Positions 5,816 to 40,275 of a DNA stretch of 64,000 nt are shown piece by piece. Below the pieces are notes generated by a model. It saw only the letters and a list, made by a program, of their open reading frames with translations, did no database searches and was not told where the DNA came from. The stretch is from a virus: positions 1-64,000 of IMG/VR virus record IMGVR_UViG_3300047160_002226; one strand, given 5' to 3'. The translations under genes and the position numbers were made by a program. Each line of letters opens with the position of its first letter. Within the stretch, counting starts at the first letter, position 1.

Positions 5816-5828
5816 TCGCACACTCCTC

Positions 5829-5886
5829 GTAACGCTCCAGCCAGGACCCAGCTCCTCAGAACCTTGGCTGGGGCGTTACTTTGTAC
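5829..5886 (+). promoter_or_regulatory. hairpin followed by TGTAC (terminator or late-promoter candidate)
   Basis: GTAACGCTCCAGCCAGG pairs with CCTTGGCTGGGGCGTTAC; TGTAC at 5882-5886. Confidence 0.5.
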
Positions 5887-5914
5887 GTGGTAGGATCCCT
5901 TTTCCGAAAGGGGC

Positions 5915-6769: not shown

Positions 6770-6841
6770 GCGCAACCGTCTCCTTCCTATGACTTGGCCC
6801 GCGTGCCCGCACTGTACTTTAGGGCAGATGGAGTCTCGACA

Positions 6842-9800
6842 ATGGAAGGCGACAATAAGCCTATCAACGAGCTTGAGGCGGTTCAGGCTAGTATCCGCGA
6901 CGTACTCAGTGAGGGCTCGAAGTCTATCCCTTCGGATCCTGATGTTACGTTCCACAAAGTAAAGCAGCTTGATGAACATGCGCTTGGCAAGCTCAAGGCG
7001 CTAGGACACCTTGGGCTTGCTGGTGCTGGGGCTTTGACAGCAGCGGGGGGTGCTCTAACAGCAGCGGGGGGTGCTCTAGGGGCAGGGATCTCTGGCTACC
7101 AGGCCATCGACAATAGTGCTAGAGAGAAGCCTTCCAAGAAGTCCGCAGCGATTGGGGTCGCTGGTTCAGCGGTCGTTGCTCATATGGGCGGAACCTACGC
7201 CCATTCTCAATGGCAGAAGGCCAAGAAGGCTTGGAAGGAATCACAAGAGGATCCTCAGCCTGATCCTAACGTCGTACCACGTCGTACTGGCCTTCGCGAA
7301 GCCATCAATGGCACGCTCACAGCAGAGCAGCTCGTAGAGTTCGCAGTGACGAGCATGGGCTATGACCAACAGGCAACAAACGCAATCTCGAATGCAGCTC
7401 GTATCGCAGCGCTTGAACCACCTGAGATCCACGATATCCAAGATCTAGCAGACACCATCGACTGGCGCTTGCTCAAGAAGGGCATCAGCACAGAGCACAT
7501 CGAGACGCAGATCCAGAACGACGGTAAGATCCTCGTTTTCCTCGATGATCGCGCCAAGCCGAAGATGGAGACGGTGAAGGAAATCCTCGCCAACTTCGGC
7601 ACAGTCAGCGTTCTCCAGAAAGCTTCTGATAGGAACGAAGAGACCAAGACAGTTGAAGGCTACTACGCCGTTCAGCTTGAACCTCTTGGTCTAGACGGCC
7701 TCCAGGCAGCTCACAACGCAACGACAGACCAGAAGGACGCGGATGACAAGATGGCCGATGTCCGTGGCCCCAATATCATGCCTGGTCCTGGGCTAGCTAC
7801 TCGTGGGGAATCTGTAGAAGATAACCAGATTGAAGGCGAGATCAAGAAGGAAGCACAAGCTCTCCTTTCTGACTTCGTTTTTAGCGCCTATGAGCCATTC
7901 TGTAGCTCATGTGGCTATCTCATCGAAGGTGCTCCCCCGAAGGACTTCCGTGCAGTGCAAGTTGATCGTGCCTCCCGTTTCGAGCGCATCGAGAAGCTCG
8001 TCGGAATGCCGCTCACAGAGCACGAGAGCATGGAAGAGACCTCGTCTGCCGATATGGCTTACATCCTTGGAGTGCAGGCTGGCCGACGCGGTGCTAAGCG
8101 GCACTACAGCGAAATGGTAGAGCGAAAGGCTGTAGGCGGGCCTCGTCCAGATACGATGGCGCGTATACAGGCGCTATCGAGGGATGTTGACGCTGTTAAG
8201 GCGAAGGCCACAGCAGAGCGCCAAAGGAAGCTCATGGCGCTACAACAGAAGCGCAATGAGAAGACAGCCAGCGCAGTAGCCAAGCTTTCTCAGATGAAGA
8301 AGCACGAGGAGCTTGGGCATCCATGGCTCCACGGCCACGGTTCACTGGCTGAGGCTTTCAGGTTCGGGTATCGCCTTGGATTTACAACATACCTCGAATC
8401 ACTCAAGCGCCGTAAGAAGAAGGCGATGGGTGCCGACTGTGAATCCGTTGAACCGATCTCAATCGTATGGCCTGCCCTCTCGCCTCTACAGGTCGCGTGC
8501 AAGCACTGCGCGACACCAGGGACGAAGCTCGATGAGCACAAGTTCAACGGGCTCTTCTGCGCTCGTCACGGCTCACACCTCGACAAGTACTCCCGCTCTT
8601 GCTACGAGTGTGAGAGCGAAGAACCAGAGTCCGCAAGCACCAAGACGCTTTGTCCAAGTTGCCTTTCAGAGACAACGGCTGAGGATGCAGCTTGCCCCGT
8701 TTGTGGTGTCGAGTTCGATGAAGGCACAGAGAGCTACGCAGAGCATATCGCATCTACAGAGTTTGCCGACATACCAGAAGCAGGGCATCCAGAGGGATGG
8801 GGCTTGAGCGTTGGAGGCAAGAAGAAGGAGCCCTCAAAGGACATCACCCAAGCTGTCTCACAAGCAGCAGCCAAGCATCACGAGGCTCCAAAGGTAGGCC
8901 CATCGAGGATCGTTCGGGGCCGAGAGAAATTCATGCACGGCTCAGAGTTCGAGCCGAAGAAGAAGAATGAAAGTGAGGACTCCGCAGGGGAAACAGATCC
9001 CTTTCGCGGACTCGCAGAATTCATAGCTGAACGTTACCCGCAGCTCTCGGAGCAAGCGCAACAGGGTCTCTTTGCAAAGGCAAAGGGCCTTCTAACGAAG
9101 TACGGCGGGCTCATCAAGAACGTCTGGGGCGCTTTCCGTGGCAAGGGTGGAGGAGCAGCGGCGCCAGCTCAAGGTGCAGCTCCCGCTCATGGTGCCGCTC
9201 CTGCTCCAGCCGCTCCTGCAGCAGTTCAAACTGCAGGCGCACCAGCAGCCCGTGCTGGAACGCCACCTCCCGTACAGCCACCTGCGGCTCCTGCTCCAGC
9301 GGCTCCAGGTCCAGCACCGCAGCCACAGGCCGTCGCACCGAGCGCGAAGGCAGCTTACAAGGCCAAGCGTGGTCAACAGAGGGCTCAAGCTGGTGTTCAG
9401 GCTGGTAAGTACACAGGAGCTTCGCAACAGGCCCAGGCTGGTGCTGCGCGCGCCGTCGTTGGACCAGGTAAACCTGGAGCTGTGTCTGGCTCTGTAGCTG
9501 GAAACGTGCAGCAAGCACGGGTCAACGTCGCACAGCAAGCGATTGCTCAAGGCAAGATGAGAACAGGCTTGCCTGGGCTGATCCAACGTGGGGGTGGTGC
9601 TGTTGCACAGGCTGGACGTTCTGTTGGTGGCGGCATTCAGAGAGCTGTGATGGGCCGCAACGTACTCCAGCGGGGTCCACAAGGCTTGCAGAAGGTTCGT
9701 CAAGGTGGCCTTGCAGGCGCCGCCAGGGGTGTCTTTGGAAGGGCTCAAGCAGCAAAGAAGTGGATGCTTGGGCAAAGTCTTGAAGACGTATCTGGCCTTC

Positions 9801-9904
9801 TCACGCTTGCTGAGGCAGAAGGTTTCGTCTTTGAGAGTGAAGAGGATGTTTACAACTTCCTTGAGTTTGTATACGACCTCTCAGAAAACTTCCTCACTGA
9901 GTAG
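6842..9904 (+). CDS. large modular putative internal head (cargo) polyprotein
   Basis: GGAG site before ATG 6842. Gly/Ala hairpin, Zn ribbons, cationic peptides, a Pro/Ala linker, many LxE sites and a C-terminal G-x-x-F module. Function inferred. Confidence 0.6.
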   Translation: MEGDNKPINELEAVQASIRDVLSEGSKSIPSDPDVTFHKVKQLDEHALGKLKALGHLGLAGAGALTAAGGALTAAGGALGAGISGYQAIDNSAREKPSKKSAAIGVAGSAVVAHMGGTYAHSQWQKAKKAWKESQEDPQPDPNVVPRRTGLREAINGTLTAEQLVEFAVTSMGYDQQATNAISNAARIAALEPPEIHDIQDLADTIDWRLLKKGISTEHIETQIQNDGKILVFLDDRAKPKMETVKEILANFGTVSVLQKASDRNEETKTVEGYYAVQLEPLGLDGLQAAHNATTDQKDADDKMADVRGPNIMPGPGLATRGESVEDNQIEGEIKKEAQALLSDFVFSAYEPFCSSCGYLIEGAPPKDFRAVQVDRASRFERIEKLVGMPLTEHESMEETSSADMAYILGVQAGRRGAKRHYSEMVERKAVGGPRPDTMARIQALSRDVDAVKAKATAERQRKLMALQQKRNEKTASAVAKLSQMKKHEELGHPWLHGHGSLAEAFRFGYRLGFTTYLESLKRRKKKAMGADCESVEPISIVWPALSPLQVACKHCATPGTKLDEHKFNGLFCARHGSHLDKYSRSCYECESEEPESASTKTLCPSCLSETTAEDAACPVCGVEFDEGTESYAEHIASTEFADIPEAGHPEGWGLSVGGKKKEPSKDITQAVSQAAAKHHEAPKVGPSRIVRGREKFMHGSEFEPKKKNESEDSAGETDPFRGLAEFIAERYPQLSEQAQQGLFAKAKGLLTKYGGLIKNVWGAFRGKGGGAAAPAQGAAPAHGAAPAPAAPAAVQTAGAPAARAGTPPPVQPPAAPAPAAPGPAPQPQAVAPSAKAAYKAKRGQQRAQAGVQAGKYTGASQQAQAGAARAVVGPGKPGAVSGSVAGNVQQARVNVAQQAIAQGKMRTGLPGLIQRGGGAVAQAGRSVGGGIQRAVMGRNVLQRGPQGLQKVRQGGLAGAARGVFGRAQAAKKWMLGQSLEDVSGLLTLAEAEGFVFESEEDVYNFLEFVYDLSENFLTE
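7037..7078 (+). repeat. 21-bp in-frame tandem duplication (TAAGGAL x2)
   Basis: ACAGCAGCGGGGGGTGCTCTA occurs twice, exactly. Confidence 0.9.
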
Positions 9905-9913
9905 GAGAAACAC

Positions 9914-10993
9914 ATGAGGCAAGAAGTCATCGACGCTATTGCAGAAGCTCTCTACTCCTACCGTGTAGGTGCTTCTACCCTTGCCGATCTACAGACTAGC
10001 GTATCTCGCTATGGCCTCATTATAGAGGATCACAATGAGGTCACAGCTATTCTCACAGAGCTTGAAGAAGAGGAAGGGGCAGAAGGCGAGGCCAAGCCAA
10101 AGAAGCCTTCCAAGCTCAAGAAGTTCCTCAAGGGCGCTGCTGTAGTCGGCGCTGGAGCTGGCGCTTTGGCTCTTGCTCATCATCTTGGCAAGAAGAAGTC
10201 TGACACAAGTGGAAGGCCAGCACCCGAAACATCTCACAAGCAATCTGATGTTCATGTTGGTCGATCCGCCTCCAAGCTCGCTGGGATGCGCGCTGCTGCC
10301 AAGCAGGAGAAAAAGGAAAAGAAGGGCGAAGAAAAGCCTGATTCAGCTAAGGAAGCAAAGCACGCTGTTGCAAGGGCTGGACAGAAGGCAAAGACACTAG
10401 AGATTAAGGGCGGTGCTCACGGTGGTCCTCGTGAATTCAGCTCTGCAATGTCGCATCTCGCTAACGTTGGCGGAAGCCACAAGCAGGTGAAACACGCGAC
10501 AGCCCTTCACCAGATGCACAAGGTTGGAAAGCTCAAGAGGCTCCGCGCAGAGAAGGAGCTACCTGCTCTAAAGCAGCATCCAATCCAGTTCGGCGGTGGG
10601 AAGAGGACTGGTGGGACTGAGCATAAGAGCAAAGCGAAAGTCAGTGGAGCCGCTGAAAAGCTCAAGGTCCACCGTGAGCATCCACTTTCTGCAGCTATGG
10701 CAGGACATCACGCTGGTAAGGCGGTCTCCCACGCGCAAGCGAAATCATCGGCTCACGCTCCTGACGAAGCGCTCACCGCGCAGGATACACGGCTTCTCAG
10801 CCTGCTTGAGACGTATATCAATGGGTTCATGACATTCTCTTCTCTTCGTGAATCGCTCCTTCCGCTAGGTATCGTTCTTCACGATCATGCGGAAGCTCTC
10901 TACCTTGCTAAGAATTTCCTTGCTGAGACGGTAGAAGCTGACGACGAAGAGGATGAGGAAAAGCAAGACGAAGAAGAGAAGAAGGGCAGCTAA
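9914..10993 (+). CDS. putative internal head protein: Lys/His-rich core flanked by two copies of an acidic helical module
   Basis: AGGAG site. The N- and C-terminal segments align with each other (Y..G..T...L..S....G..I.DH.E). Confidence 0.65.
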   Translation: MRQEVIDAIAEALYSYRVGASTLADLQTSVSRYGLIIEDHNEVTAILTELEEEEGAEGEAKPKKPSKLKKFLKGAAVVGAGAGALALAHHLGKKKSDTSGRPAPETSHKQSDVHVGRSASKLAGMRAAAKQEKKEKKGEEKPDSAKEAKHAVARAGQKAKTLEIKGGAHGGPREFSSAMSHLANVGGSHKQVKHATALHQMHKVGKLKRLRAEKELPALKQHPIQFGGGKRTGGTEHKSKAKVSGAAEKLKVHREHPLSAAMAGHHAGKAVSHAQAKSSAHAPDEALTAQDTRLLSLLETYINGFMTFSSLRESLLPLGIVLHDHAEALYLAKNFLAETVEADDEEDEEKQDEEEKKGS

Positions 10994-10996
10994 ACC

Positions 10997-13231
10997 ATGA
11001 CGCAGATCTGGTTGCCGCTTACGCCATCATTCGATCCAGTAGAATACGCACTCACAGAGGGCCTTGATGAGAGTTGCGTCAAGGATCTTGTTGAGGCAGG
11101 GGTGGCTGGTGGTCGTCATGCTCAGCTCCGCTATCTCTTCGCAAAGGGGCACCTCAGCAAGAAGAAGCGTGGCGGCGTTCACTACCGCAAGTATCGCAAG
11201 GGTTCACCTGAACACAGCAAACACGCAAGCCGCAAAGCACGCCAGCGCTACGGCCACGCCTATCGCTTCGGTTCTCCAGAACACCACGAGCACCTTCGGA
11301 AGATCTCCCCATTCGTCCATCGACACGAGAGTGTGATGGAGGATCATGGAATCACGTACTACGGTGTCTCGGCACCTTCAACAGAAGAAGTCGATCTCAC
11401 ATACCACACAACGAGCGGAAATCTCAAGTCACTTGTCAGCAATGGCGCCTTCCGTCGCCTAGTCAGAATGTACTACATGAAGTCTGGCGCCAACAAGGAG
11501 CGGGCTACAGTCATTCTGATGGCTCTTCTCGTTGAGCTTGTGAAGGGCCTTGGCATCCAGGCACGGCCACATCTGATTGACAACATCAAGTGGGCTATCG
11601 AAACAGAGCTGCAAAGCTTGTATCACATGGAGCTAGGATCTGATGCAGAGCTTCCAGCTAGCACTGGATCCCGTGGTTCTCGTGGTCTACGCCAACGCCT
11701 CTTCAAGACTCTCTATTCGCGCTATCGCGACCACTCAGAGGCCGCAGGAGAGCTTGTCGAGATCGCAAAGGCTCTACTCCACGCTCTTCGCGTGGATAGC
11801 CCAGCGAACATGCGCAATGTCCACAAAGCAGTGAATGATATCCTAACGTCGGCACATCTTGAGGGTCACATTGGAGAAGCTGTCCAGGGTGAACAAGAGC
11901 AAGTTGTCTTCGACACAGCCTGTGAAGCACTCGCCCCCTACGCAGACGCCAACCTCACGCTCGAAAACGTCGCCAGCATTCTCGACTCTGCTGGGCTTCT
12001 GTTCCGTAATCATGATGCTTTTGGGCTTCTGCTGGATCGGATTGTCGAGTCTGGTAAGGATCGTGATCGGGGCGATGGGCCTGGGGATGATGATGACGAT
12101 GATAGTGACGACGATGCTGACGGCGGTGATGACGGACCAGATGATGACGATTATGACGATGATGAAGACGAAGAGGATGAGGAAGGCGACGATGAGGATG
12201 ATGAGGATGAAGACGAAGAGGACGATGAGGAGGATGACGAAGACGACGACGGAGACGATGACGACGATGAAGAAGAGGATGAGAAGGATAGCAAAAAGGA
12301 TGAGTCGTTTTCCGCCAGGGAAGTAGAAGTATACGAACTCGCTGAATCAGTCCTCGAAGAGCGTAGTCTTGTGAAGGCAGCTTGGCACGCTGGCAAAGGA
12401 GCAGTACATGCTGGTATTGCTGGCCTTGGCCTTTATGGTGGCGTTAGCTCAGCCCACGCTCTAAAGCATCCTGAGAAGGAACATCCAGAGGCAGTTCGTT
12501 GGTATCAGGCCCGCGCTAAGCAGGCCATCGATGCTTCTCACCTACACCATGCCAAGCGCAGCAAGGAACTTTCAACTCCTAAAGATACCGATTGGGCAAA
12601 CAAGGCAGCAGCCAAGGTACACAACTTCCCAGGAGGCGACGTTGCCAATATTGGCCTAGCCATGGGTCGCGCCAAGTTCCATGACATCGTAGCTCGCAGC
12701 AAGGGCCACGCTGCAGCAGCCCTTGTCGGTTCACATGCACTCGCTCTTCACCAGGGCCTCGCGGCTGGCAAGTCCTTCCACACTGCCTGGAAGCATCTCA
12801 AGTCAGAGGCTAAGGCCGATGTTTCGGAGGATACGAAAGCTGCTTTGAAGCACGTTGGCAAAGGTCTCGGGCACACGGCAGCAGCCATTGGTGGAGCTTT
12901 CATCGGTAACAGAGCCTTCTCAGGCCATTCCGATGCAGAGAAACAAAAGGCCGCTGAGCGATGGGCAAAGCAAGGCTGGGAGCATGGAATCCCTGAACGG
13001 GATCATCCGCCTAAGACAGCAGCTCCTCACCACGGCATCGGAGCTGAGGGTAAGCCGATGCGTGAGCCAGAGGTCGAACAGCCTTGGCATGGACTAGGTC
13101 GTCATCCAGTTCCCGCTCATGCGGTAGCAGCGGGCGGATACGGTCTCTTCTTTCATCAGGGGCACAAGGCTGTAAAGAGCTTCAAGAAGGCATACAAAGC
13201 CTACAAGCAGCCTAAGAGAGTTGACGCTTGA
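10997..13231 (+). CDS. putative internal head polyprotein with a basic arm, a long D/E tract and two His-rich hairpins
   Basis: Seen directly in the translation; LxE/ES motifs lie at the segment boundaries. Confidence 0.65.
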   Translation: MTQIWLPLTPSFDPVEYALTEGLDESCVKDLVEAGVAGGRHAQLRYLFAKGHLSKKKRGGVHYRKYRKGSPEHSKHASRKARQRYGHAYRFGSPEHHEHLRKISPFVHRHESVMEDHGITYYGVSAPSTEEVDLTYHTTSGNLKSLVSNGAFRRLVRMYYMKSGANKERATVILMALLVELVKGLGIQARPHLIDNIKWAIETELQSLYHMELGSDAELPASTGSRGSRGLRQRLFKTLYSRYRDHSEAAGELVEIAKALLHALRVDSPANMRNVHKAVNDILTSAHLEGHIGEAVQGEQEQVVFDTACEALAPYADANLTLENVASILDSAGLLFRNHDAFGLLLDRIVESGKDRDRGDGPGDDDDDDSDDDADGGDDGPDDDDYDDDEDEEDEEGDDEDDEDEDEEDDEEDDEDDDGDDDDDEEEDEKDSKKDESFSAREVEVYELAESVLEERSLVKAAWHAGKGAVHAGIAGLGLYGGVSSAHALKHPEKEHPEAVRWYQARAKQAIDASHLHHAKRSKELSTPKDTDWANKAAAKVHNFPGGDVANIGLAMGRAKFHDIVARSKGHAAAALVGSHALALHQGLAAGKSFHTAWKHLKSEAKADVSEDTKAALKHVGKGLGHTAAAIGGAFIGNRAFSGHSDAEKQKAAERWAKQGWEHGIPERDHPPKTAAPHHGIGAEGKPMREPEVEQPWHGLGRHPVPAHAVAAGGYGLFFHQGHKAVKSFKKAYKAYKQPKRVDA
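12059..12307 (+). repeat. low-complexity GAY/GAR tract encoding poly-Asp/Glu
   Basis: Near-continuous Asp/Glu codons. Confidence 0.9.
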
Positions 13232-13521
13232 TCCCTATTGACGACGAAATGGAACTTGATGAAGTCCGTCGTCGGACAAGGGGTCGTGTCGTCTCTGTTG
13301 GTGGTATACGATTTCGCATTGGGCGTCGATATGTAGGCGCTAAGAACATGAAGCGCTCACGTGCCGCCAAGAGAGCAGCAAGGCGTTTCCGCTTCAAGCG
13401 CAGGATGGCGCGAAGGAAGTTCTTGCGCTCATCACGCGGACGAAGACTTATCAGGGCTCTACATCAACTCGCACAACGTCGTAGGCATTCGCCAGGGTCT
13501 CATCATCGTAGGCACCACTGA
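13228..13521 (+). CDS. Arg-rich protamine-like protein, possibly a T4 gp68-like prohead core protein
   Basis: A short acidic leader ending ELDE is followed by an extremely Arg-rich body; T4 gp68 has the same acidic-then-basic layout. Confidence 0.55.
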   Translation: MIPIDDEMELDEVRRRTRGRVVSVGGIRFRIGRRYVGAKNMKRSRAAKRAARRFRFKRRMARRKFLRSSRGRRLIRALHQLAQRRRHSPGSHHRRHH

Positions 13522-13522
13522 T

Positions 13523-13777
13523 ATGGACAGCAACACCCCCATTCATGATGCACTCCTAGATCCCTCTCTTATAGAGGAGATGAGGAAAGAATGTGAAGAA
13601 GCTGGTCTTATCTTTGATGACGACGAAGAACTGATCGAGTTTCTCAACGAGGTTTTGACTTACGGTTCCCCAGAAGGGGAGTTTAACGTCCCAGAACACG
13701 TTGATAGAGACGAAGATGAGTTTGATGATGAGTATGACGATGAAGACGAACTGGAACCAACAGAGCAAGAATCTTAG
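13523..13777 (+). CDS. small acidic protein with one G-x-x-F module (gp67-like composition)
   Basis: ATG 2 nt after the previous stop; CEEAGLIFDDDEELIEFLNE followed by an acidic tail. Confidence 0.6.
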   Translation: MDSNTPIHDALLDPSLIEEMRKECEEAGLIFDDDEELIEFLNEVLTYGSPEGEFNVPEHVDRDEDEFDDEYDDEDELEPTEQES

Positions 13778-13827
13778 ACGCTTCTTTGAAACAAGCCACA
13801 GGCGGCAAGCCTGGGAGATGAGTAGTT

Positions 13828-16437
13828 ATGGACCTTAACGGGCTAGGAATCGGTCTCAACACGGATGTAGCCGAAAACGAAGGATCGACTCATCTACCTG
13901 CTGCTGCAGCTCCTAACAGTCACCCAGAACACAGCGGCGCCAAGCACGCAGCGAAGGTCGCTGCTATGGCTGGCGGCGGTGTCGCTGCTCTTGCTGGCGC
14001 TGGCTATCTAGCCCATCGTGCCATCAAGAAGTGGTGGAAGAAGGGCAAGAAGGCGCACGAGTCCTTGTATTCGCGCGTTCTTGAGGCCACCGCTGGAGGC
14101 GATCTTTATCAAGAGGACTTCGATACCGTCAAGAGTCTAGCAGAGAATGACGGTTTTGAGTTCGACAATGACGATGCAGTTTGTCAGTTCATTCTCATGG
14201 GTGTCGAGGAAGCTGAGAAGCCTGAGCCCGCAGGTGTTCTCTCAGATATCTACGGCGCCGATAGCATCAAGTCCTGGTGGCTCGGCCAGGATGAGAATCT
14301 CCTTTACTCCGATCCTTCTCAGATCCGAAATCTAGCTGAGCAGGATGGAGTCGTATTCCCAACAGAAGATGAGCTTATTGAGTTCATTGAGCTTGGCTTC
14401 GACGCCATCGAGGAACACGGTGACGCCTGCCCAGAAACAGGTTCGATGGAAACAGGGCGTCTTGCTAAGCAGCAAAAGAAGGAGCCGCCCGAAACAGGCT
14501 CGATGGAAACAGGGCGTCTCTCCAAGCCCAAGAAGGAGTCGCTCGTGTCAGAAGCGCTTCTCACTAAGATTCGCGAGTTCTTCGCGGAGTGCCAGCTTCC
14601 TGCTGGTCAAGTCGTCAATGCCGATCAGATCCAGAAGCTCGCAGAAGAGAAGGGCTTCACTTTCACAGATCGTTCAGCTCTCGATGCCTTCATTCGTATC
14701 GGCCTCGATGAGACGTATGGAGTTGAGGACGCGGTCACGGCTGAGGAGCTTGAGGCAACGGAGCAGGCCATCGCTGCCATCCGTGAGAGCCTCTCGAAGA
14801 GCGTTGATGCTCTCGATCTAGGGACTATCCGCGAGGCTGTCCAAGCAGCGGTTCCTGGCTTCGAGTTCGAGAACCTCGCAGAGCTTCGTACCTTCGCATC
14901 CGATATCGTTCCTACGTTGACAGAGGAAGAGAAGAAGCCTGGTTTCGTACGCAAGTGGGCAGGTCGTATTGGCAAGGCTGCTGTAGCTGGCGCCGCTCTC
15001 TACGGTGCTCACAGGGCCGCGCAGGCAGGTCATCTTGGCGCGGGTGTTCAAGCGGCTCATGCGAAGCTTATGGGCAAGGCTGCTGGGCACGCAGCCACAG
15101 CTAAGAAGGCTGTCGGCGCCGCTCTCCAGAAGGGTGGCGAGAAGGCTGCTGAGGCGGGTGAGAAGCTCCAGCACAGGACGCAGCGGATGGAGGCAAAGAA
15201 GCCGTTCCCGCTTGGCGCGGGTCGTCCAATGAGCGAGGAAGATAACCAAGAGATCGCTCACCCTGGTCTCCTCCAGAACGTCGATATGCAGCCTCAGCAT
15301 CCAGGTGCAGACATCTTCCCTGGCGTCGAGAAGTCGCATGGCGAAGGTGAGGCTGGACAGCATGTTGGCCCCACAAGCGATACGCTTTCAGGCAACGCTT
15401 CGGGCTCACACGATGCGAAGGACAGTGGTGGCGAAGGCGCTATGGACGGCGGCAGCAAGGGCACAGAAGGCCCAAGCGATGCCACAACTGGTCAGAATGA
15501 CGAGATGTCGATGAAGGAGTGTCCTGTCTGCCACGATCCGAATGCAGCTACAGAAGCATTTTGCGGTCGTTGTGGAACGGTTCTCCCCGTCAATCCGAAC
15601 AACATGGACGGTGGCGTACCTGCAATGGGCCGCATGATGGGTGGCAAGGCGAACACGCAAGCCTACATGGGTCCAGGTGCCATGAACGTGACTGGTCCTC
15701 CAGAGGGAGTTGCTAGCCCCTATGGTGGCGCTCCCAATAAGAACGCCTATATCGGTGCTGGAGCAATGGCCGATAAGGGAATGCCTGGTCCGAACATGGG
15801 TGGAGCTTCCTTCTATGCTGGTCAGAATCCAGCGATGAAAGAATCACGCCGCATCGAGACTTCGCAGCTCGTTCTTGAGCGCCTCCTACGTGGTGTTCCA
15901 GCTCGGAAGGCTATCGAAGAGCAAGGCAAGGATCAGACTTCGCGGACACAGATTGCTGGTGCTCCGAAGGCTGGTGGTATGTCAGCCGCAGCGAAGGACT
16001 CAGTGGCTTCGCACGCTAGGGGTGCAGAAGGCAAGAGCCCAGAGAAGGAAGGCGCAGCACGGGCTGGCACGATGCACAAGGACGCAGAGGCACCGCATCC
16101 AGAGAACGTGACAACTCGTCGTGAGTCGGTTTCTCAGGACTCTAACGTAGCTGAGGCTGAGACGGACGATCCCGTTCCGCAGCAGGTTCCCGTTGGCACG
16201 GCGTCAACAAGCCAGCCTGCAGCACCGAGCGTCGATGCTGTGAATCGCGCGCTCGCACAGAACGGATTCCATCCAATCACTGAGCTAGAGGTTGAACACA
16301 TTGTTGGATTCCTCTCGCAGCTCGGAGAGAACGTCCGCAAGGCTGCTCAGTATACGGGGCATCCTCTGCCGCTTGTGCAGATCGTTGCTAACCTCGCAGG
16401 TTACGGTCCTCAGTACGGCTATCCCAACATTCGCTAA
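13828..16437 (+). CDS. modular putative prohead core/cargo polyprotein
   Basis: Five G-x-x-F modules, two cationic Gly/Ala helices, a Zn ribbon and a helix-G-P-helix tag. Confidence 0.65.
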   Translation: MDLNGLGIGLNTDVAENEGSTHLPAAAAPNSHPEHSGAKHAAKVAAMAGGGVAALAGAGYLAHRAIKKWWKKGKKAHESLYSRVLEATAGGDLYQEDFDTVKSLAENDGFEFDNDDAVCQFILMGVEEAEKPEPAGVLSDIYGADSIKSWWLGQDENLLYSDPSQIRNLAEQDGVVFPTEDELIEFIELGFDAIEEHGDACPETGSMETGRLAKQQKKEPPETGSMETGRLSKPKKESLVSEALLTKIREFFAECQLPAGQVVNADQIQKLAEEKGFTFTDRSALDAFIRIGLDETYGVEDAVTAEELEATEQAIAAIRESLSKSVDALDLGTIREAVQAAVPGFEFENLAELRTFASDIVPTLTEEEKKPGFVRKWAGRIGKAAVAGAALYGAHRAAQAGHLGAGVQAAHAKLMGKAAGHAATAKKAVGAALQKGGEKAAEAGEKLQHRTQRMEAKKPFPLGAGRPMSEEDNQEIAHPGLLQNVDMQPQHPGADIFPGVEKSHGEGEAGQHVGPTSDTLSGNASGSHDAKDSGGEGAMDGGSKGTEGPSDATTGQNDEMSMKECPVCHDPNAATEAFCGRCGTVLPVNPNNMDGGVPAMGRMMGGKANTQAYMGPGAMNVTGPPEGVASPYGGAPNKNAYIGAGAMADKGMPGPNMGGASFYAGQNPAMKESRRIETSQLVLERLLRGVPARKAIEEQGKDQTSRTQIAGAPKAGGMSAAAKDSVASHARGAEGKSPEKEGAARAGTMHKDAEAPHPENVTTRRESVSQDSNVAEAETDDPVPQQVPVGTASTSQPAAPSVDAVNRALAQNGFHPITELEVEHIVGFLSQLGENVRKAAQYTGHPLPLVQIVANLAGYGPQYGYPNIR
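14431..14540 (+). repeat. imperfect 57-bp tandem repeat (PETGSMETGRL x2)
   Basis: Units start at 14431 and 14488. Confidence 0.85.
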
Positions 16438-16492
16438 GTGGTAGTACCAACCTTTCCACTACTCCTCCTCGTCGTATTGCATCTCTTCCGCT

Positions 16493-16536
16493 AGCCCCGT
16501 TACCTGGCGCACCTCCCAGGTAACGGGGCTTTGTAT
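16493..16536 (+). terminator. 15-bp perfect hairpin followed by TTGTAT
   Basis: AGCCCCGTTACCTGG pairs with CCAGGTAACGGGGCT, downstream of the 13828 gene. Confidence 0.65.
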
Positions 16537-16546
16537 TGCTGAGCAT

Positions 16547-17554
16547 ATGGCTGATAATCTGGATGATAGCCTTCGTGAACTCGCTGAGGGAAGCCCCGTA
16601 GAGGAGGTCATCGGACGGCTTTTCGGTGGAAAGCTAGGACCTGAACCTTACTGCACACGATGTCAAAAGCGTAAAACAAGCGGATACGCCTACTGCGACG
16701 TATGCCGAAGTGAGCTTGCTGAGCGCCTGGCTGGATTGAAGCGTGCTGGTTGCTGCGTAAGCTGCAAGAAGCCTATTCAGGCTGGCGCATGGTGTGGTGA
16801 GTGCCTCAACAAATCCCGCGTGAAACGAGAGGATAGGAAGGCGAATGGCCGCTGCACTCGCTGCAATGGAGTGGCTATCCCAGGACAAACGCGCTGTGAG
16901 ACCTGCAAGGCTTTCGATGACTGGCGTATTCAGCAGTTGAAGAAAGATGGCTACTGCGTTGGATGCCATACTGCAAAGGCTAGGGAGGGTAAGGCTACCT
17001 GTGAGCCGTGCTCACGGAAGCGGCTAGAGAACGTCAGGAAGTGGCGCGAAGCTCAGAAGGCGTACAAGGCAACGCCTCTCGGGTTGCTTGAAGTGCAATG
17101 GAAGAAGAGTCCCGCTGATTGGACGCTTATAGGCCAGTACTACCGAGAGTTGCGCAAAACTGATTGTAAGAAAAAAGTAGATGAACTTCTTACATCATCA
17201 TTTGACCGCTCTGTTGATACAGCACTAGCAGAGTTTCTGAATGCTTTCTCATTCATTCCAGCGCTTGTTGAGGGGAAGAGCTATTCGTTCGCTCGGCCAG
17301 CGAGACGCAATCAGTATGTGCAACAGCTACAGCTTCGCCCAGGTTGGACAGCACTCGCAACGAAGCTCGGACAGCCGCTACCTGACGTTTCGGGCACGAT
17401 AGAATCTCTGTTCGTTCTCTTCCGAACACCGACTGGCTATGCTCTCAACATCTCGCACATACGCGGACTACCAGAATCGGATGGGAAGATCCGTAGGCAC
17501 GAGCTATCAGCCGACGTAGCTCAGTACGTCTCATATAGCGAGCCGTCTCTCTAA
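16547..17554 (+). CDS. Cys-rich repeat (CxxC...CxxC) zinc-binding protein with an N-terminal helical tag
   Basis: Four CxxC-x(8-10)-CxxC repeats; N-terminal LRELAEGSPVEEVIGRLF. Confidence 0.7.
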   Translation: MADNLDDSLRELAEGSPVEEVIGRLFGGKLGPEPYCTRCQKRKTSGYAYCDVCRSELAERLAGLKRAGCCVSCKKPIQAGAWCGECLNKSRVKREDRKANGRCTRCNGVAIPGQTRCETCKAFDDWRIQQLKKDGYCVGCHTAKAREGKATCEPCSRKRLENVRKWREAQKAYKATPLGLLEVQWKKSPADWTLIGQYYRELRKTDCKKKVDELLTSSFDRSVDTALAEFLNAFSFIPALVEGKSYSFARPARRNQYVQQLQLRPGWTALATKLGQPLPDVSGTIESLFVLFRTPTGYALNISHIRGLPESDGKIRRHELSADVAQYVSYSEPSL

Positions 17555-17566
17555 GATAGGTGAGAT

Positions 17567-18055
17567 ATGGAACAGTACCACGACCTTGTTCAGCAGATAG
17601 TACGTGGCCGTCCCGTTTCGTCTGCTGTTGAAGAGCTTCTAGGCGAAGACAAGCTATCTGGCGAGGAACGAGAAGAACTATCTGGTGGTGAGTTCGTCTT
17701 CCCGAAGGAACGCCGTTATCCGATTCATGATGAAGCGCACGCCCGCAATGCACTTGCTCGTGTAGCTCAACACGGATCACCAGACGAACAAGCAAAAGTC
17801 AAGGCGGCGGTTAGGAAGAAGTATCCAAGCATCGAAGTCGGGGAATCACTTGAAGACGACGATGAAGAGCCTGTCGAGGAAGCAGATAAGTGGATCCAAG
17901 GCGCTATCAAGCATCCTGGGGCACTTCACAGGCAGCTTGGTGTTCCCGAAGGCGAGAAGATTCCAAGGAAGAGACTCGAACAAGCGGCACAAGCTGGCGG
18001 AAAGCTAGGCAAGCGCGCTCGACTCGCAATGACGCTCGGCAGACTCCGCAAGTAA
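17567..18055 (+). CDS. tag + DUF6582-like domain + basic KHPGALH domain
   Basis: FVFPKERRYPIHDEAHARNALAR (DUF6582-like), an acidic spacer, then WIQGAIKHPGALH...RARLA. Confidence 0.7.
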   Translation: MEQYHDLVQQIVRGRPVSSAVEELLGEDKLSGEEREELSGGEFVFPKERRYPIHDEAHARNALARVAQHGSPDEQAKVKAAVRKKYPSIEVGESLEDDDEEPVEEADKWIQGAIKHPGALHRQLGVPEGEKIPRKRLEQAAQAGGKLGKRARLAMTLGRLRK

Positions 18056-18064
18056 GAGGGGCTC

Positions 18065-18433
18065 ATGTCTAACAAGAACTGGCAGGTAGTTGGTTCCGTC
18101 AATGTGACGGGGCTAGCACCTATCAAGCTCGATCAAACGACAGCGCAAGTCAACGATCAGAACGAGATCCGCACCTACAGAAACACACTGACTCCAAGTG
18201 AGTCTTTCACCCCAGATCTCACTGCGTTCGCTGCTGTGCGCTCAATCGTGTTTACGTCAGATCAGCCTGTGAGCGTGACGATCAACGGTGGACCACCGCG
18301 TCCGAATGTTCGTATGGTTATCGAATGGGCTTCTGCTAGCGGCTCATTGCTTTCTGGAATCACGGTACAGAATCCACCTACAGCGCTCGTCAATGCGGAA
18401 ATCACGTTGGTGCTCGGGGGAGACGGTGTGTAA
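18065..18433 (+). CDS. small beta-rich virion protein
   Basis: GAGG site; resembles the 18443 and 39435 proteins (SDQPVSVTING). Confidence 0.6.
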   Translation: MSNKNWQVVGSVNVTGLAPIKLDQTTAQVNDQNEIRTYRNTLTPSESFTPDLTAFAAVRSIVFTSDQPVSVTINGGPPRPNVRMVIEWASASGSLLSGITVQNPPTALVNAEITLVLGGDGV

Positions 18434-18442
18434 GGAGCAACG

Positions 18443-18694
18443 ATGGCTGCACCTAAGACCGTCAACGTCAACGCCGATTTCAAGGCGAACAACGACAGCT
18501 TCAAGTTGAATCAAACCGTCAATACGTCGGATATGGAGACGGTTCTCGCAAGTCTGTCTCCGACGACTGACAGTACCACTATGTCTTCTTCGAGCCTTTT
18601 GCTTGTTGCAAGTCAGCCTGTCAATACGAATTTGCTTGGCGGAACGCCGCAGACTAACGTAAGGCTCCTTATCCTACTCGCTGACCCTGCGTAA
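18443..18694 (+). CDS. small virion protein, paralogue of 18065
   Basis: AAGGAG site; shared KL.QT...SQPV...GG.P..NVR pattern. Confidence 0.6.
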   Translation: MAAPKTVNVNADFKANNDSFKLNQTVNTSDMETVLASLSPTTDSTTMSSSSLLLVASQPVNTNLLGGTPQTNVRLLILLADPA

Positions 18695-18699
18695 GTGCC

Positions 18700-19062
18700 A
18701 TGCCATTTGTAAACAAGGAAAAAGATCGCGAATACAGGCGTAACTATCGACTCAAGTACCATCATCGTCGCATGGAAGATGATGAGTATAGACAAAGATA
18801 TCGCGGTTATGCGATGGCTCGCTATGACCGTATGCGAAAGATTGTTCAAGATTTCAAATCTGGAAAAGCCTGTGTGAAGTGTGGTGAGAACCATCCTGCC
18901 TGTCTAGTCTTCCATCATCGTGACCCAAGCACAAAGCTCTTCAACATCGGCAACTACAACAAGGCGGCAAAGGCTATCCACGAAGAGATAGCAAAGTGTG
19001 ACTTGTTGTGTGCGAACTGCCACCTAAAGCTCCACGCAGAAGCTAGGACGGCTGTATCGTGA
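18700..19062 (+). mobile_element. free-standing HNH endonuclease
   Basis: CVKCG...FHHRDP...EEIAKCDLLCANCH. Confidence 0.85.
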
Positions 19063-22013
19063 ACATAATTTCGATCACACCACGAGGCGGTAGCCCTGGT
19101 ACGTCAATAACCATCGTTGGCACTGGTTTCGGTGCCACGCAGGGCACCATTACGATTGGTGGTCAGCCAGTCTCGACCTTCTCGAACTGGACAGATACGA
19201 ACATCGTCTTCCTAGTGCCCACTGGCACTCCAACAGACGGTAACTTCGTTCTCCACATCAACGATGCTCTTCTCGTCAACTCCGCAGAAGAGATGTTCTG
19301 GGTTCCATCGCCAACCCCGCTTTTCAATGACATAGATTACAAACTCCCTGGAACTGAAACTGGTCCTACGCAGAACGATGACCTAGCACGTCGTCTCGAT
19401 GCTGCGACGATCAACCGTATCTTCGACCGCGCAACAGCGATCAATCCACCAGGGCAGCAGGGTCCAGCAGGTCCCGCTGGACCTCCAGGTCCCGCTGGAC
19501 CTGCTGGCCCTGCAGGTCCACCAGGAGCTACTGGTCCTGCTGGTCCTACAGGTCAGCTTGGCCCACAAGGTCTCCCTGGTGCTACAGGCCCAAAGGGTGA
19601 CAAGGGCGACACAGGACTCACAGGCGCTCCTGGCCCGCCAGGTGTAGCAGGTGTTCAGGGTGCAACTGGCTCGATTGGACCGATGGGTCCACAAGGCACC
19701 GCTGGTCTTCCAGGTGCCACAGGTTCTCCTGGTGTCGCAGGTCCAAAGGGTGATACTGGTCCTATAGGCCCAGCAGGTCCAGCGGGTATAGAGGGCGCGT
19801 CAGGTCCGTCTGGTCCCGCAGGACCAATCGGACTCACAGGCGCAACAGGTGGGCCTGGCCCACAAGGAATCCAAGGTCCACAGGGTCTTCCTGGCCCAGC
19901 GGGTCCTGCAGGTCCAATCGGCCTAACAGGTCCAAAGGGTGACACAGGAGCCGCAGGTCCAGCAGGATCGCAAGGTTCCACAGGCGTAGCAGGTCCAGTA
20001 GGTCCAATAGGTCCAAAGGGAGATACTGGCCCACAGGGCGCTCTCGGGCCATCAGGCGCAGCGGGTGCCACAGGCTTGACGGGTCCAATCGGTCCTCAAG
20101 GTCCGAAAGGTGATAAAGGCGATACAGGTCCAATCGGCGCAACAGGAGCGTCTGGCGCTCCTGGTCCCGCTGGTATCGCAGGTCCAGCAGGAATACAAGG
20201 AACAACTGGTCCTCCAGGCCCGCAAGGTGTCGCTGGTCAGCCAGGTGTTCCTGGTGCTCCAGGTAATCAGGGTCCAAAGGGTGATACTGGTATCACTGGT
20301 GCTCAAGGAGCCGCAGGCCCAACTGGTGCTCCTGGTATTCAGGGTGTCAAAGGCGATAAAGGTGATATCGGTCTCACTGGTCCTATTGGATCAATCGGTC
20401 CACAAGGTCTTCAAGGCCCGTCTGGTCCCGCTGGTCCTAGCGGGACACAGGGTCCTTCGGGACCTCCAGGTCCCATTGGCCCTCCAGGTCCCAAGGGAGA
20501 TCCAGGTCCACAAGGCATCGAAGGTCCGCAAGGTGTCCAAGGTCCACTTGGTCCGATAGGCCCTTCTGGTGGTCCTCCAGGTCCACAAGGTAATCCAGGT
20601 ATTCCTGGTCCTCCTGGCGCACAGGGTCCTCCTGGTGCTACTGGTCCTCAAGGTCCAGCAGGCCCAACAGGTTCACAGGGCCTCACTGGTGCTGTAGGAC
20701 CAACAGGCCCTCCTGGTTCGGTTGGTCCCGCTGGTCCCGCTGGCGTTGCTGGCCCTCCTGGTGCAGCAGGTTCAACGGGTGCTCAAGGTCCACCAGGCGT
20801 TACTGGTCCTGCAGGACCGACAGGTCCCACAGGTCCGACAGGATTCAACTGGCGAGATAGCTGGACATCGTCCGCTACTTACCAGATAAACGATGGTGTC
20901 GAATCTGGTGGAACCAGCTACATTGCAATAGCTGTTAACACTAACTCACAGCCACCGAGCGTGAACTGGAACCTGTTCGCACAAGCAGGTTCGCAAGGCC
21001 CAACAGGTCCGACAGGTCCAACAGGAGCTACAGGTTCCACAGGTCCACAAGGACTTCAAGGTCCACCAGGCGTAACTGGAGCAACTGGTGCAACTGGACC
21101 TACAGGCCCCACAGGACCCCAAGGCCCACCAGGTCTCAACTGGCGTGATACTTGGTCAAGTCTTTCAATTTACCAGATAGGTGATGGCGTTGCCTGGCAA
21201 GGCAATAGCTATATTGCCGTCGCTGTTAGCACAGGCTCCCAACCTCCGAGCGTAGATTGGGACCTACTCGCACAAGAAGGTGCTCAGGGTATTCAGGGTA
21301 TCCAGGGTATCCAAGGCATTCCAGGTCCAACTGGTGCGACGGGACAGGGCTTCACTTGGCGTGGCAACTGGAGCAACGTCACTGCGTATCTTGCTTACGA
21401 CGTTGTAATGTATCTAGGCTCCACGTATGTTGCGATAGCAAGTAGCACTGGAGCTATACCAGAGAACAGCCCGTCTAAGTGGGGTCTTTCTGCTCAAGGA
21501 ATCAACAATACTGGTGCGTGGAACTCCGTCGAGACGTACAGTCCTGGCGATCTTGTAACGCTCAATGGGTCATCTTACCTTTGCGTAATCTCTAACACGA
21601 ATACCATACCTCCGAACCCGACATACTGGCTCCTCTTCGCCTCGAAGGGCGATCAGGGTATCCAGGGCTATCAGGGTGTTCAAGGTCCATCTGGTGGTCC
21701 GACAGGTCCGCAGGGTATCCAGGGCAACCAGGGCAACGCTGGTGTTACGGGCGCTACATCGAATGCTGGTATGCGTCAGCAGCAAGTCACGGCTGCGTTG
21801 CTAACGGGGCCTCAATCTTTCACAATTACGACAGCGAACACGCCGATTGCCACAGATCGCGTCTATATGATTGTCGATGGTAGGTACGAGCGGGCAAACG
21901 GAAACATCACGGTCGCTATCAGTGTTGGGAGCTTCCAAGTCAACTGGAATGGGGCATACGACCTTACACCCAACGACGACATCGTCGTTACTTGGTTCAC
22001 GACACCTCCGTGA
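19059..22013 (+). CDS. collagen-like fibre protein with an N-terminal IPT/TIG domain and CBM5/12-like repeats
   Basis: [20 protein letters not shown] (IPT); a long Gly-X-Y run at about 19450-20845; four W-x5-Y..GD.V...G.SY repeats. Confidence 0.9.
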
Positions 22014-32148: not shown

Positions 32149-32657
32149 CCTATCTCTGGGAAGATCGTAAAAGTACATGGGCTCGGATGATAGCGGATGC
32201 TTTCTTCCGTGGCCGCGAAGGTGGCGAGCACCTCAAGCCCGCTGACCAGTTCCGTGCTGCCTATCGGTCCTATGCAAAGGAGATGAGCAGGCTCTCTAGT
32301 GAGGAACAAAGAGTAATACTCATAATGGCCGAGAAGGAGATCGAGTCAAAAGGCGTCGATATGCTTAGCGGCTATTCTCCAGAGCAGTGGATCGAGGATG
32401 AAGAGGAGCAAAAGGCTAACGCTCTTGAAGTCGTCTCTATCTTCAAGGACCTTGTGAAAGGCAAGAAGAACAATGTTCGCAGGCAGTTCGATCTTGCTGT
32501 CGCCTATTTTCTAGGACTTACCGACGATATGGACAAAAACAGTCAAGAGTTCAAACGAATCCTCTATTTGCTTGCGCATGACGAAGATGTCCGAGAACTT
32601 ATTGCAACCGCAAGACCGTATCTGCTGATTGAAGGCTACAAGGTGGATGATTTCTGA
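32145..32657 (+). CDS. hypothetical helical protein
   Basis: ATGA overlap; ends LLIEG, an LxE motif. Confidence 0.6.
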   Translation: MTYLWEDRKSTWARMIADAFFRGREGGEHLKPADQFRAAYRSYAKEMSRLSSEEQRVILIMAEKEIESKGVDMLSGYSPEQWIEDEEEQKANALEVVSIFKDLVKGKKNNVRRQFDLAVAYFLGLTDDMDKNSQEFKRILYLLAHDEDVRELIATARPYLLIEGYKVDDF

Positions 32658-33754
32658 TGTCTAAGCGAAGTCACAGGAAGAAGAGGCGTAGTCACATGGC
32701 GAAGAAGTTGGCAAGCGAGAGTCGAGAACTCGACCTCACGGCCAAGTCGGCTCATGCCTCGACCGTCAAGACGGGACAAAAGATCAAGCTAAAGCCTGGA
32801 GCTGGCAAGATCCGTACGCCAGAGGAGCAGGAGCACTGCTTGAGGCACGGGCCAGATGCATTGGAGAGCGTGGAGCCTGAGAAGATGACGGTTGGACAGT
32901 TCTTCGATCTTCTGGAGAAGAAGAAAAAGAAGCGCGGCCCGACGAATGTGCTCAACAAGGACCCTGCGACGGATCCGACGATTCGTCAGGTGAACCCAGA
33001 GCTTGTTGATCCAGCTCAGCAAGCAGCGCAGAACGCGGCTGCGGGGCCTCAGACAGCGCCGCAGCAGGGCGCACAGCTCGACCCTACCCAGATCGCTCAG
33101 CAGGCTGCTGTAGGCGGTCCTGCGGCCCTTCCTGACACTGCCCAGCTAGACCCTGAGATGAAGCAGCTTGTAGCGCAAGCCATCGCTGCGCAGCTCACAC
33201 AAGGGCAGGGACCAGCTCCAGTCGGTGCAGGTGGTGAAGCTCCACCTCCACAGGACCAGGAGGGCCAGGGACAGGCTCAGGTAGCGCCACAGCAGGGAGG
33301 GGAACAGCCTCCTCAGCAAGAACCATCCGCTCCAGGTCAACCAGGACAGGATCAAGGTCAGCCTGGGATGGAACAGCCAGGGCAAGAGGGACAGCCACAG
33401 CTTGTGGGGCCAGAGATGGTGGGAGAGCTACCACCAACCATGCCGATCAAGTACGACCAGGCTGGAGCCCCTGACAAGTACACGCTGGACGGACATACGG
33501 TCAGGTGGGACGGACGGGAGTACATCCTTTCCTGGGAACCTGAGAAGTATGTCTACCGTCTAGTGGATCCGATGACGATGATCGTCAGGCTTCGTGTGAA
33601 GCCTGAGCAGATCTCTGTGATTCAGCCAGATAAGAGCTTGGCTTCACTATCGAATGAATCGGTAGCAGATTCGATCCCAGGGCTCGCTCATGGCGATAGT
33701 TTGGCGGATCATCTTCGTCTTCTACTGTGGGACGCACCTATTCTGGTTGCTTGA
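32657..33754 (+). CDS. modular protein: basic arm, Gln/Pro-rich linker, small beta domain, C-terminal helical tag
   Basis: TGATG overlap; C-terminal ESVADSIPGLAHGDSLADHLRLLL. Confidence 0.65.
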   Translation: MSKRSHRKKRRSHMAKKLASESRELDLTAKSAHASTVKTGQKIKLKPGAGKIRTPEEQEHCLRHGPDALESVEPEKMTVGQFFDLLEKKKKKRGPTNVLNKDPATDPTIRQVNPELVDPAQQAAQNAAAGPQTAPQQGAQLDPTQIAQQAAVGGPAALPDTAQLDPEMKQLVAQAIAAQLTQGQGPAPVGAGGEAPPPQDQEGQGQAQVAPQQGGEQPPQQEPSAPGQPGQDQGQPGMEQPGQEGQPQLVGPEMVGELPPTMPIKYDQAGAPDKYTLDGHTVRWDGREYILSWEPEKYVYRLVDPMTMIVRLRVKPEQISVIQPDKSLASLSNESVADSIPGLAHGDSLADHLRLLLWDAPILVA

Positions 33755-40273: not shown

Positions 40274-40275
40274 CT

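Follow-up and report, generated by a model that had tools for sequence, protein, structure and literature searches.

Background

In bacteriophage T4, a set of hypervariable internal proteins carries a capsid-targeting sequence that is removed by gp21 (PMC3012670, PMC5694885), and the loci encoding these proteins combine conserved short modules with fast-changing payloads (PMC3012670). Cleaved propeptides are likewise found on head proteins of phage SPN3US (PMC10052503), and the polyvalent proteins of phages and conjugative elements are predicted to be packaged and injected (Iyer et al. 2017, PMC5512222). Here we describe a block of eight consecutive plus-strand genes at positions 6842-18055 of a 64,000-nucleotide stretch of viral DNA (hereafter, the window), which is the first 64 kb of the 116-kb IMG/VR virus record IMGVR_UViG_3300047160_002226. 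An earlier note on this DNA had placed eight genes here, and long open reading frames (ORFs) are present at each of the locations. They form an 11-kb block of orphan genes for patchwork proteins and, with six outliers encoded elsewhere in the window, make up a focal set of 14 proteins. We tentatively propose from their sequences that the eight genes and some of the outliers encode fast-evolving, mosaic, largely disordered internal head (ejected) proteins of a T4-type phage.

The locus can be compared with three described systems. With the T4 internal proteins IPI, IPII, IPIII and Alt it shares a T4-type S77 protease, a scaffold core and a Gp23 capsid protein, as well as a hypervariable set of cargo proteins, putative in our case, in which short address-like segments are conserved; basic products, and a cut behind Glu with a hydrophobic residue at P3, are predicted here from sequence. 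Unlike the 10-residue T4 leader, the candidate tags of this phage (two short acidic helix hairpins, designated modules 1 and 2) are 22-45 residues long and occur in N-terminal, C-terminal and internal positions in up to five copies. The proteins are also up to ten times larger than those of T4, and an E-S-hydrophobic junction is prominent.

The ejection and inner-body proteins of the giant phages phiKZ, 201phi2-1 and SPN3US are processed by gp175/gp245-type proteases (PMC10052503, PMC5694885). They resemble what is predicted for the proteins described here in being large and head-internal, with long propeptides that contain several cut sites, in being cut after Glu with Ser favoured at P1', and in depending on a protease related to T4 gp21. 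They differ in that the giant-phage motif is S/A/G-x-E rather than [LIVM]-x-E, there is no sequence relation, and the present genome, at an estimated ~150 kb, is not that of a jumbo phage. Polyvalent proteins share with the focal set the combination of several unrelated small modules in one chain, their reshuffling between phages and a predicted delivery with the DNA; in addition, large multidomain proteins that carry NUDIX, methyltransferase, peptidoglycan-binding and protease domains also contain the DUF6582 domain found in our block. In contrast to polyvalent proteins, the eight proteins consist mostly of low-complexity charged sequence instead of globular domains. Family searches found no MuF, portal or enzymatic effector domain in them and no polypeptide with two or more unrelated effector or enzymatic domains. 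What we add here is a cleavage motif derived from the scaffold itself and an unbiased pattern test.

The head protease and its predicted cleavage site

An S77 prohead protease fused to a coiled-coil scaffold is encoded on the plus strand at 49413-51206. It matches Pfam PF03420 (Peptidase_S77) with 38.3 bits against a cut-off of 27, phrog_207 at 2e-33 and, by phmmer, the T4 gp21 structure 5JBL at E 3e-4, and its true start was set at 49413 by alignment with four relatives. Two blocks, G-H-x-E-H-P and S-S-R-G-K-G-S, do not vary among five relatives and align with the matching blocks of 5JBL; by analogy with gp21, they presumably hold the catalytic His and Ser. The Gp23-type major capsid protein follows at 51250-52650 on the same strand (Pfam Gp23, 3e-69). 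Its propeptide of ~66 amino acids (aa) ends in L-T-E↓T-T, a cut site kept as L-N-E↓T-T or L-x-E↓TTKA in four relatives.

The cleavage motif was derived from these expected substrates of the phage itself and was not assumed. In the protease-scaffold, [LI]xE occurs 26 times versus 9.9 expected (z ~6), and the reversed Ex[LIV] 17 times versus 14.5, i.e. the excess is directional. Among dipeptides that follow [LIVM]-x in the scaffold, ES is the clear leader (8 versus 1.0 expected, z 7.5), and it also ranks first in the scaffolds of the relatives (16 versus 2.7), where EA is second. Many scaffold sites are conserved in four relatives despite 45% overall identity, and the relatives are enriched likewise. 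Because of this enrichment and conservation, and of L-x-E↓T in the capsid protein, the predicted cleavage site is [LIVM]-x-E followed by S, A or T. Such a site would agree with that of T4 and with the preference for Ser at P1' in SPN3US (PMC3012670, PMC5694885, PMC10052503). The claim in the earlier note that gp21 and gp23 of this phage carry L/I-x-E sites was thus borne out by the scaffold enrichment and by the capsid L-T-E↓T-T, with conservation in relatives.

Directly before the protease gene, with a 4-base overlap at its start, lies an endonuclease VII gene (48997-49416; phrog_2914, 2e-31). It is not found at this position in relatives L002, L011, L012 and L013 and may be a mobile insertion.

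The eight orphan genes and their patchwork products

Family searches with the focal proteins returned almost nothing beyond weak zinc ribbons, DUF6582/phrog_16160 and one receiver domain. All eight genes of the block are read from the plus strand. The first (6842-9904) encodes a mosaic protein of 1020 aa with Gly/Ala-rich, weakly hydrophobic segments, a double zinc ribbon (weak DZR_2 match), a Pro/Ala/Gln-rich basic region and a C-terminal module 1. In the second (9914-10993, 359 aa), module 1 stands at both ends of a basic His-/Lys-rich middle; no neighbours of this protein were found in the ESM Atlas. The third mosaic protein (10997-13231, 744 aa) runs from a basic N-terminal part through module 1 and an Asp/Glu run to basic His/Gly/Ala-rich hairpins. 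Its Asp/Glu run is unbroken for ~75 residues (aa ~355-430, window positions 12060-12290), and a DNA-mimic role is conceivable for it.

Two small genes of opposite charge follow. At 13249-13521 is encoded an Arg-rich, protamine-like protein of 90 aa whose short acidic N-terminus ends in LDE, with a net charge of +28 as computed on the 97-aa ORF at 13228-13521. Its acidic neighbour (13523-13777, 84 aa; P0242 in our representative library) has one module 1 and an Asp/Glu tail and a net charge of ~-34 on the longest ORF, 13361-13777. This gene pair, 13249-13777, resembles a protamine-like protein and a neutralising partner. The next gene (13828-16437, 869 aa) specifies a Gly-zipper segment, four to five copies of module 1, a zinc ribbon, a C-terminal domain and a K-E-S junction followed by a module-2-like helix; aa 76-370 were modelled with AlphaFold2 (AF2). 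The zinc-ribbon protein at 16547-17554 (335 aa) combines an N-terminal module 2, a CxxC zinc-ribbon cluster (weak DZR match) and a C-terminal domain, and its structural neighbours in the ESM Atlas are viral double-zinc-ribbon proteins only. The block closes with a three-bead protein of 162 aa at 17567-18055, described below.

To measure charge segregation, net charge was taken in windows along each of 117 proteins and its variance was compared with that of shuffled sequences. Focal proteins hold ranks 1, 2, 5, 6, 7, 9, 10, 13, 17 and 19; they thus account for six of the top nine places, and 10 of the 14 stand in the top 19. The protein encoded at 10997 is the most extreme in the proteome (z 18.7, rank 1), and that at 6842 ranks seventh. 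A pattern of acidic modules alternating with cargo segments had been described for all of these genes; alternation of acidic and basic blocks is unusual in most focal proteins when judged against shuffles, but not in those encoded at 16547, 53294 and 34920, whose charge pattern is ordinary.

Glu-Ser junctions in the focal proteins

The LxE and xES strings quoted in the earlier note were all found where it had put them. Its proposal that cargo segments often end at xES holds in part: ES followed by [LIVM] is present beyond chance, but most ES sites lack a hydrophobic P3. ES[LIVM] occurs 17 times in the 14 focal proteins versus 5.1 expected (z 5.4), a count reached by 0 of 2000 shuffles, and in a scan that covered all 289 testable X-Y-[LIVM] classes it ranks first. 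It is the top class in the scaffold too (6 versus 1.0). The other 105 proteins show no enrichment (19 versus 20.5), and controls with reversed or substituted residues are flat. The signal replicates in P0254 and P0241, homologues of two block proteins (5 versus 0.9, p 0.002), and there is none in 238 DUF6582 proteins of other phages (82 versus 81.9). The pattern was first spotted by eye, a concern that the scan of all patterns and the replication in homologues lessen without removing it. Many of the focal sites read K-x-E-S-h-x-[DE], where h is hydrophobic. In the acidic segments of the eight proteins, LxE shows a modest directional excess (39 versus 26.7, compared with 28 versus 26.1 for ExL).

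Two candidate hairpin modules

Shared tags had also been proposed for these proteins. Module 1 stands up as a true shared helix-loop-helix, whereas module 2 is statistically weak. Unbiased all-against-all blastp joined aa 125-195 of the 13828 protein to aa 964-1031 of the ORF starting at 6794 (E 4e-5), and AF2 models the module 1 copies as a helix, a seven-residue loop and a second helix, with a predicted local distance difference test (pLDDT) score of 70-79. With hidden Markov models (HMMs) built by leaving out one protein at a time, two of five proteins scored above decoys, namely the copies at 13523 (11 bits versus a decoy maximum of 5.7) and 6794; since only these are recovered, the copies in the 9914 and 10997 proteins are regarded as distant members. 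A profile of ten copies (alignment A1) was searched against 1.84 billion proteins and retrieved 14, of which P0241 and P0254 are true homologues and the rest are generic helix-loop-helix repeats. A Foldseek search of the PDB with the module 1 array gave nothing significant, calmodulin-like helix-loop-helix proteins coming top at E 0.4.

Module 2 spans 22 residues, arranged as helix, G-x-P/S and helix. Leave-one-out models found the right place in six of eight cases and scored above 20 shuffled proteomes in only two of the eight, the best being the copy at 39815 (8.5 bits versus a decoy maximum of 4.9). All but one of the eight copies are found no more than ~25 residues from a terminus. The module is N-terminal in the proteins encoded at 16547, 17567 and 39815, ending in LGE or LHE in two of them, and in the 17567 protein it is modelled by AF2 as a confident hairpin (pLDDT 87-91). 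Module-2-like helices were seen by eye in P0125, P0202, P0008 and P0019, which is anecdotal. Comparison by eye with the scaffold tail, which is conserved in relatives, showed no convincing likeness to module 2.

Homologues and related phages

Two homologues allow the evolution of the block proteins to be followed. P0241 corresponds to the 9914 protein, with termini that are 75-80% identical and a basic middle that is scrambled, shorter and marked by large indels. P0254 corresponds to the 13828 protein (blastp 3e-22, ~30% identity); it has two copies of module 1 versus five, and it has retained the zinc ribbon and C-terminal domain together with the junctions of K-x-E-S plus helix. No homologue of the 13828 protein was found by word-indexed search or in IMG/VR, P0254 having surfaced only via the module 1 profile, and IMG/VR scans with P0241 and P0254 found nothing. 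Stable modules around a fast-changing payload resemble the pattern of the T4 internal proteins. The same conservation also fits a disordered linker that joins two functional end domains.

Relatives L002, L003/L016, L011, L012 and L013 have capsid proteins that are 80-92% identical, and alongside the capsid gene they keep the protease and, downstream, the genes for neck and tail. Between the capsid gene and the conserved gene that comes next is a slot filled by non-homologous proteins. In several of these an N-terminal helix pair closes with L-V-E, L-L-E or L-T-E and leads into Gly-zipper and Lys/Arg-rich segments, and one scores 9.3 bits with the module 2 HMM. In our window the hypervariable slot is occupied by an outlying member of the focal set (53294-54733, plus strand), which has an N-terminal helix ending in LSE and an N-E-S before a C-terminal module 2; this copy was missed by the leave-one-out HMM.

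Two further features of slot proteins were observed in the relatives. The slot protein that adjoins the capsid gene in L002 (10045-11052) and L003 (3338-4336) has an N-terminal helix that closes with LxE, a pair of Gly-zipper segments, an H-E-x-x-H domain (possibly a zinc peptidase) and a hydrophobic C-terminus. Those of L012 (3774-4952) and L003 (2053-3393) start with M-P-F-K-S-x-x-Q-x-R, which resembles a DUF3008-type start; such a start is fused to DUF6582 in P0008 (precomputed Pfam PF11450).

The 17567 protein and DUF6582

The protein encoded at 17567-18055 is the best-anchored candidate for head cargo in the block. Its sequence opens with a module 2 hairpin that closes with LGE. A DUF6582 core follows, up to VGE↓S, and is joined by an acidic linker to a basic helical domain at the C-terminus. 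The AF2 model, built from 38 sequences (mean pLDDT 83.8, predicted template modelling score 0.38), shows three independent units with acidic linkers of low confidence. The core matches phrog_16160 at 1e-16 and scores 26.2 with Pfam DUF6582 (PF20223), just below the cut-off of 27.3, and it fits the conserved R-Y-P-I-x-D...H-A-R-N-A-L-A-R family core. Although the core is thus that of the DUF6582/phrog_16160 family, here it has a module 2 hairpin on one side and, on the other, a second small domain that is basic. Foldseek with the model found nothing in the PDB and only uncharacterised phage proteins in BFVD.

There are 213 homologues of near-equal length (E<=1e-3) and 236 longer ones (E<=1e-5), sharing 40-80% identity over the DUF6582 core. 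The modules of the 17567 protein also stand alone elsewhere as proteins of 58-100 aa, including in BFVD. In P0002, which is 85% identical, L-A-E, V-G-E-S and V-E-E-A are kept at the three proposed junctions. The core is found within or beside head maturation proteases, including the Mu gpI-type P0131 and the XkdF-type P0164, and P0231 joins it to the N-terminus of a protease-capsid fusion. It occurs as well in proteins of up to ~1660 aa with NUDIX, methyltransferase, BRCT and peptidoglycan-binding/endolysin domains. Because other phages carry DUF6582 as a fusion with prohead proteases or scaffolds, we link the 17567 protein to the capsid interior. We know of no function for the DUF6582 family; if the focal proteins are head cargo, this widespread family would gain its first context, as a module of the capsid interior.

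Outlying members of the focal set

Besides the slot protein at 53294, the focal set includes five outliers, all on the plus strand. The product of 48319-48732, just 5' of the protease, has a basic N-terminal half, K-K-E-S and a module-2-like hydrophobic helix, and it occupies the position of the small prohead core proteins in T4, by analogy with genes 67 and 68. Two small proteins of 152 and 135 aa are encoded at 39815-40683, one with module 2 near its N-terminus ending in LHE and the other with a C-terminal module 2. The protein at 32657-33754 has a basic N-terminus, a Gln/Pro-rich middle and, behind N-E-S, a C-terminal module-2-like helix that was missed by the leave-one-out HMM. At 34920-36116, a CheY-like receiver (aa 12-102; NCBIfam receiver hits, best 4.5e-8) is fused to a Lys-rich and His/Gly/Ala-rich tail. 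Such a receiver with a charged tail is an odd architecture for a phage protein.

Internal head cargo or other roles

If the focal proteins are internal head proteins, modules 1 and 2 would dock the precursors onto the protease-scaffold core during prohead assembly, and the acidic hairpins might also neutralise adjoining cationic stretches. The S77 protease would then trim at least some junctions, namely the LxE that closes N-terminal hairpins and possibly the E-S junctions, whereas the basic Gly/Ala/His-rich segments, zinc ribbons and DUF6582 module would remain with the DNA. Breakdown into many small peptides is the least supported element of the scheme, and for the earlier suggestion that released peptides are membrane-active, DNA-binding or signalling molecules we found no support beyond composition.

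A fuller version would have two portable hairpin address modules, with an N-terminal tag that ends in L-x-E and internal or C-terminal tags that follow E-S, the acidic modules being removed and the cargo co-injected. The block would then be an 11-kb arsenal of charge-neutralised pro-proteins that leave cationic Gly/Ala/His-rich peptides behind in the DNA-filled head, together with zinc ribbons and DUF6582 modules, and it would be a much enlarged, modular T4 internal-protein system. We consider this version improbable as a whole.

Were the proteins head cargo in either form, wild T4-like phages would carry injected arsenals far larger and more modular than T4's three internal proteins and Alt, and address modules with a protease grammar would permit quick swaps of payload. 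Injected proteins could be predicted from sequence in uncultured phages, and the modules might be new capsid-loading tags. If they are not cargo, they still form an unusual orphan set with extreme charge segregation, though of much narrower interest.

Several findings weigh against head cargo. Some 31 kb separate the block from the head genes downstream of it, and its immediate upstream neighbours are genes of nucleotide metabolism. At 744-1020 aa, its longest proteins are very large by the standard of internal proteins. Module 1, unlike the leader of T4, is in many cases placed internally or at the C-terminus. The module 2 pattern carries little information, and its HMM also fires on a G-T-P-E-E turn within DUF6582 and yields no excess over decoys on 238 DUF6582 homologues. 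The slot proteins of relatives have no general enrichment of LxE or ES[LIVM]. In the eight proteins, [LIV]xE is found 80 times versus 56 expected (z 3.9), an excess mirrored by Ex[LIV] (77 versus 54.5), and LxxE is depleted. Since ExL is equally enriched and LxxE depleted, the overall LxE excess points to amphipathic helices with Glu on the polar face. Cargo had been said to start right after LxE, which our count does not uphold, as 4 of 17 objective acid-to-base switches carry [LIV]xE versus ~2.4 expected by chance on our estimate. Finally, a hydrophobic P3 is present at 8 of 31 focal ES sites versus 8 of 10 in the scaffold, and because so few have it the focal E-S-h could be a helix N-cap instead of a cut site.

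Several of these findings would be expected if the proteins act uncleaved inside the host cell, as disordered, charge-segregated host-takeover, nucleoid-binding or membrane-associated proteins with the hairpins as interaction or auto-inhibitory modules. We consider such a role only slightly less probable than head cargo. It would account for the equal enrichment of LxE and ExL with depletion of LxxE, for the lack of a significant LxE excess at charge switches, for the majority of ES sites being without a scaffold-type P3, and for the place of the block, which comes after the genes for thymidylate synthase and a nucleotidyltransferase and a long way from the head genes. The CheY-like receiver in one outlier is a cytoplasmic signalling fold, and the Gly/Ala-rich segments resemble glycine zippers, though their Kyte-Doolittle hydropathy of 1.0-1.5 over 19 residues is under the usual transmembrane threshold. 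An intracellular role does not explain why ES[LIVM] is enriched in the scaffold and the focal proteins and not in the other 105, nor why other phages have DUF6582 joined to prohead proteases. In relatives, proteins with this architecture also adjoin the capsid gene, and one tagged protein, that at 48319, stands just 5' of the protease.

The focal proteins could instead be packaged and work essentially whole, condensing DNA in the head or serving in ejection, with no more than a short terminal hairpin removed and without giving rise to many peptides as polyproteins would; we think this unlikely. The basic regions do evolve fast and look like spacers or DNA-binding disorder, not like defined peptides. 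Slot proteins of relatives have a single LxE after the N-terminal helix, with internal sites not enriched, and 42 head proteins of SPN3US are reported as uncleaved (PMC10052503). Set against this are the ES[LIVM] junctions, which recur between modules in the large proteins and are conserved in P0254, and the existence elsewhere of the 17567 modules as separate small proteins.

Precursors of the ribosomally synthesized and post-translationally modified peptide (RiPP) or bacteriocin type, with module 1 as a Nif11-type leader and V-A-G-G in the 10997 protein as a double-glycine export or cleavage site, are very improbable. A relaxed Pfam scan did give Nif11 (PF07862) at 19.3 bits (E 1.4e-3) for one module 1 copy (14611-14670), and L-V-E-A-G-V-A-G-G is present in the N-terminal region of the 10997 protein. 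The Nif11 score is below the cut-off of 23.8 bits, falls to 12 bits at that place when the whole 116-kb record is scanned, and comes from a model that matches in 11 of 14 control genomes; scores at this level are noise by the control genomes, and a Nif11-type leader identity for module 1 is all but refuted. No NCBIfam leader family matched, no maturation enzyme or C39 transporter was seen, and the proteins are 10 to 20 times the length of RiPP precursors.

That the ORFs are not genes and the patterns are artefacts of low complexity is hardly credible in spite of strong low complexity and the lack of family hits for most proteins, because homologues exist, with conserved segments for three proteins, and the tightly abutted frames lie on a single coding strand, stay open for as many as 744-1036 codons and give confident local AF2 structure.

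Genomic setting

The record is 79% complete by the CheckV estimate, which puts the full genome at ~150 kb. Nearly all genes in the window lie on the plus strand. At the DNA level, neither the head genes nor the focal block had a match among 50,697 deposited phages, and the T4 late-promoter consensus TATAAATA is not present anywhere in the window. Nucleotide-metabolism genes (nucleotidyltransferase and thymidylate synthase) stand directly upstream of the eight genes, and an HNH gene and a gene for a collagen-repeat fibre protein are found downstream.

After the 13828 gene, the sequence at 16438-16546 (plus strand) reads as a terminator-like GC-rich hairpin with a T-rich run. GC-rich hairpins are in fact found at both 5816-5914 and 16438-16546, each followed by C-T-T-T-G-T-A, and they are likely to be intrinsic terminators that bracket a transcription unit with most of the focal genes.

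Immediately after the block, 18065-18694 encodes two small paralogous proteins of 122 and 83 aa (blastp E 0.007), for which no family hits were obtained. The HNH endonuclease gene at 18700-19062, just beyond the end of the block, has a paralogue at 38318-38686 (mutual blastp E 7e-12). The fibre-like protein at 19059-22013 (984 aa) has an N-terminal TIG domain, ~7 stretches of collagen triple-helix repeats (Pfam 1e-81) and a CBM_5_12 carbohydrate-binding module.

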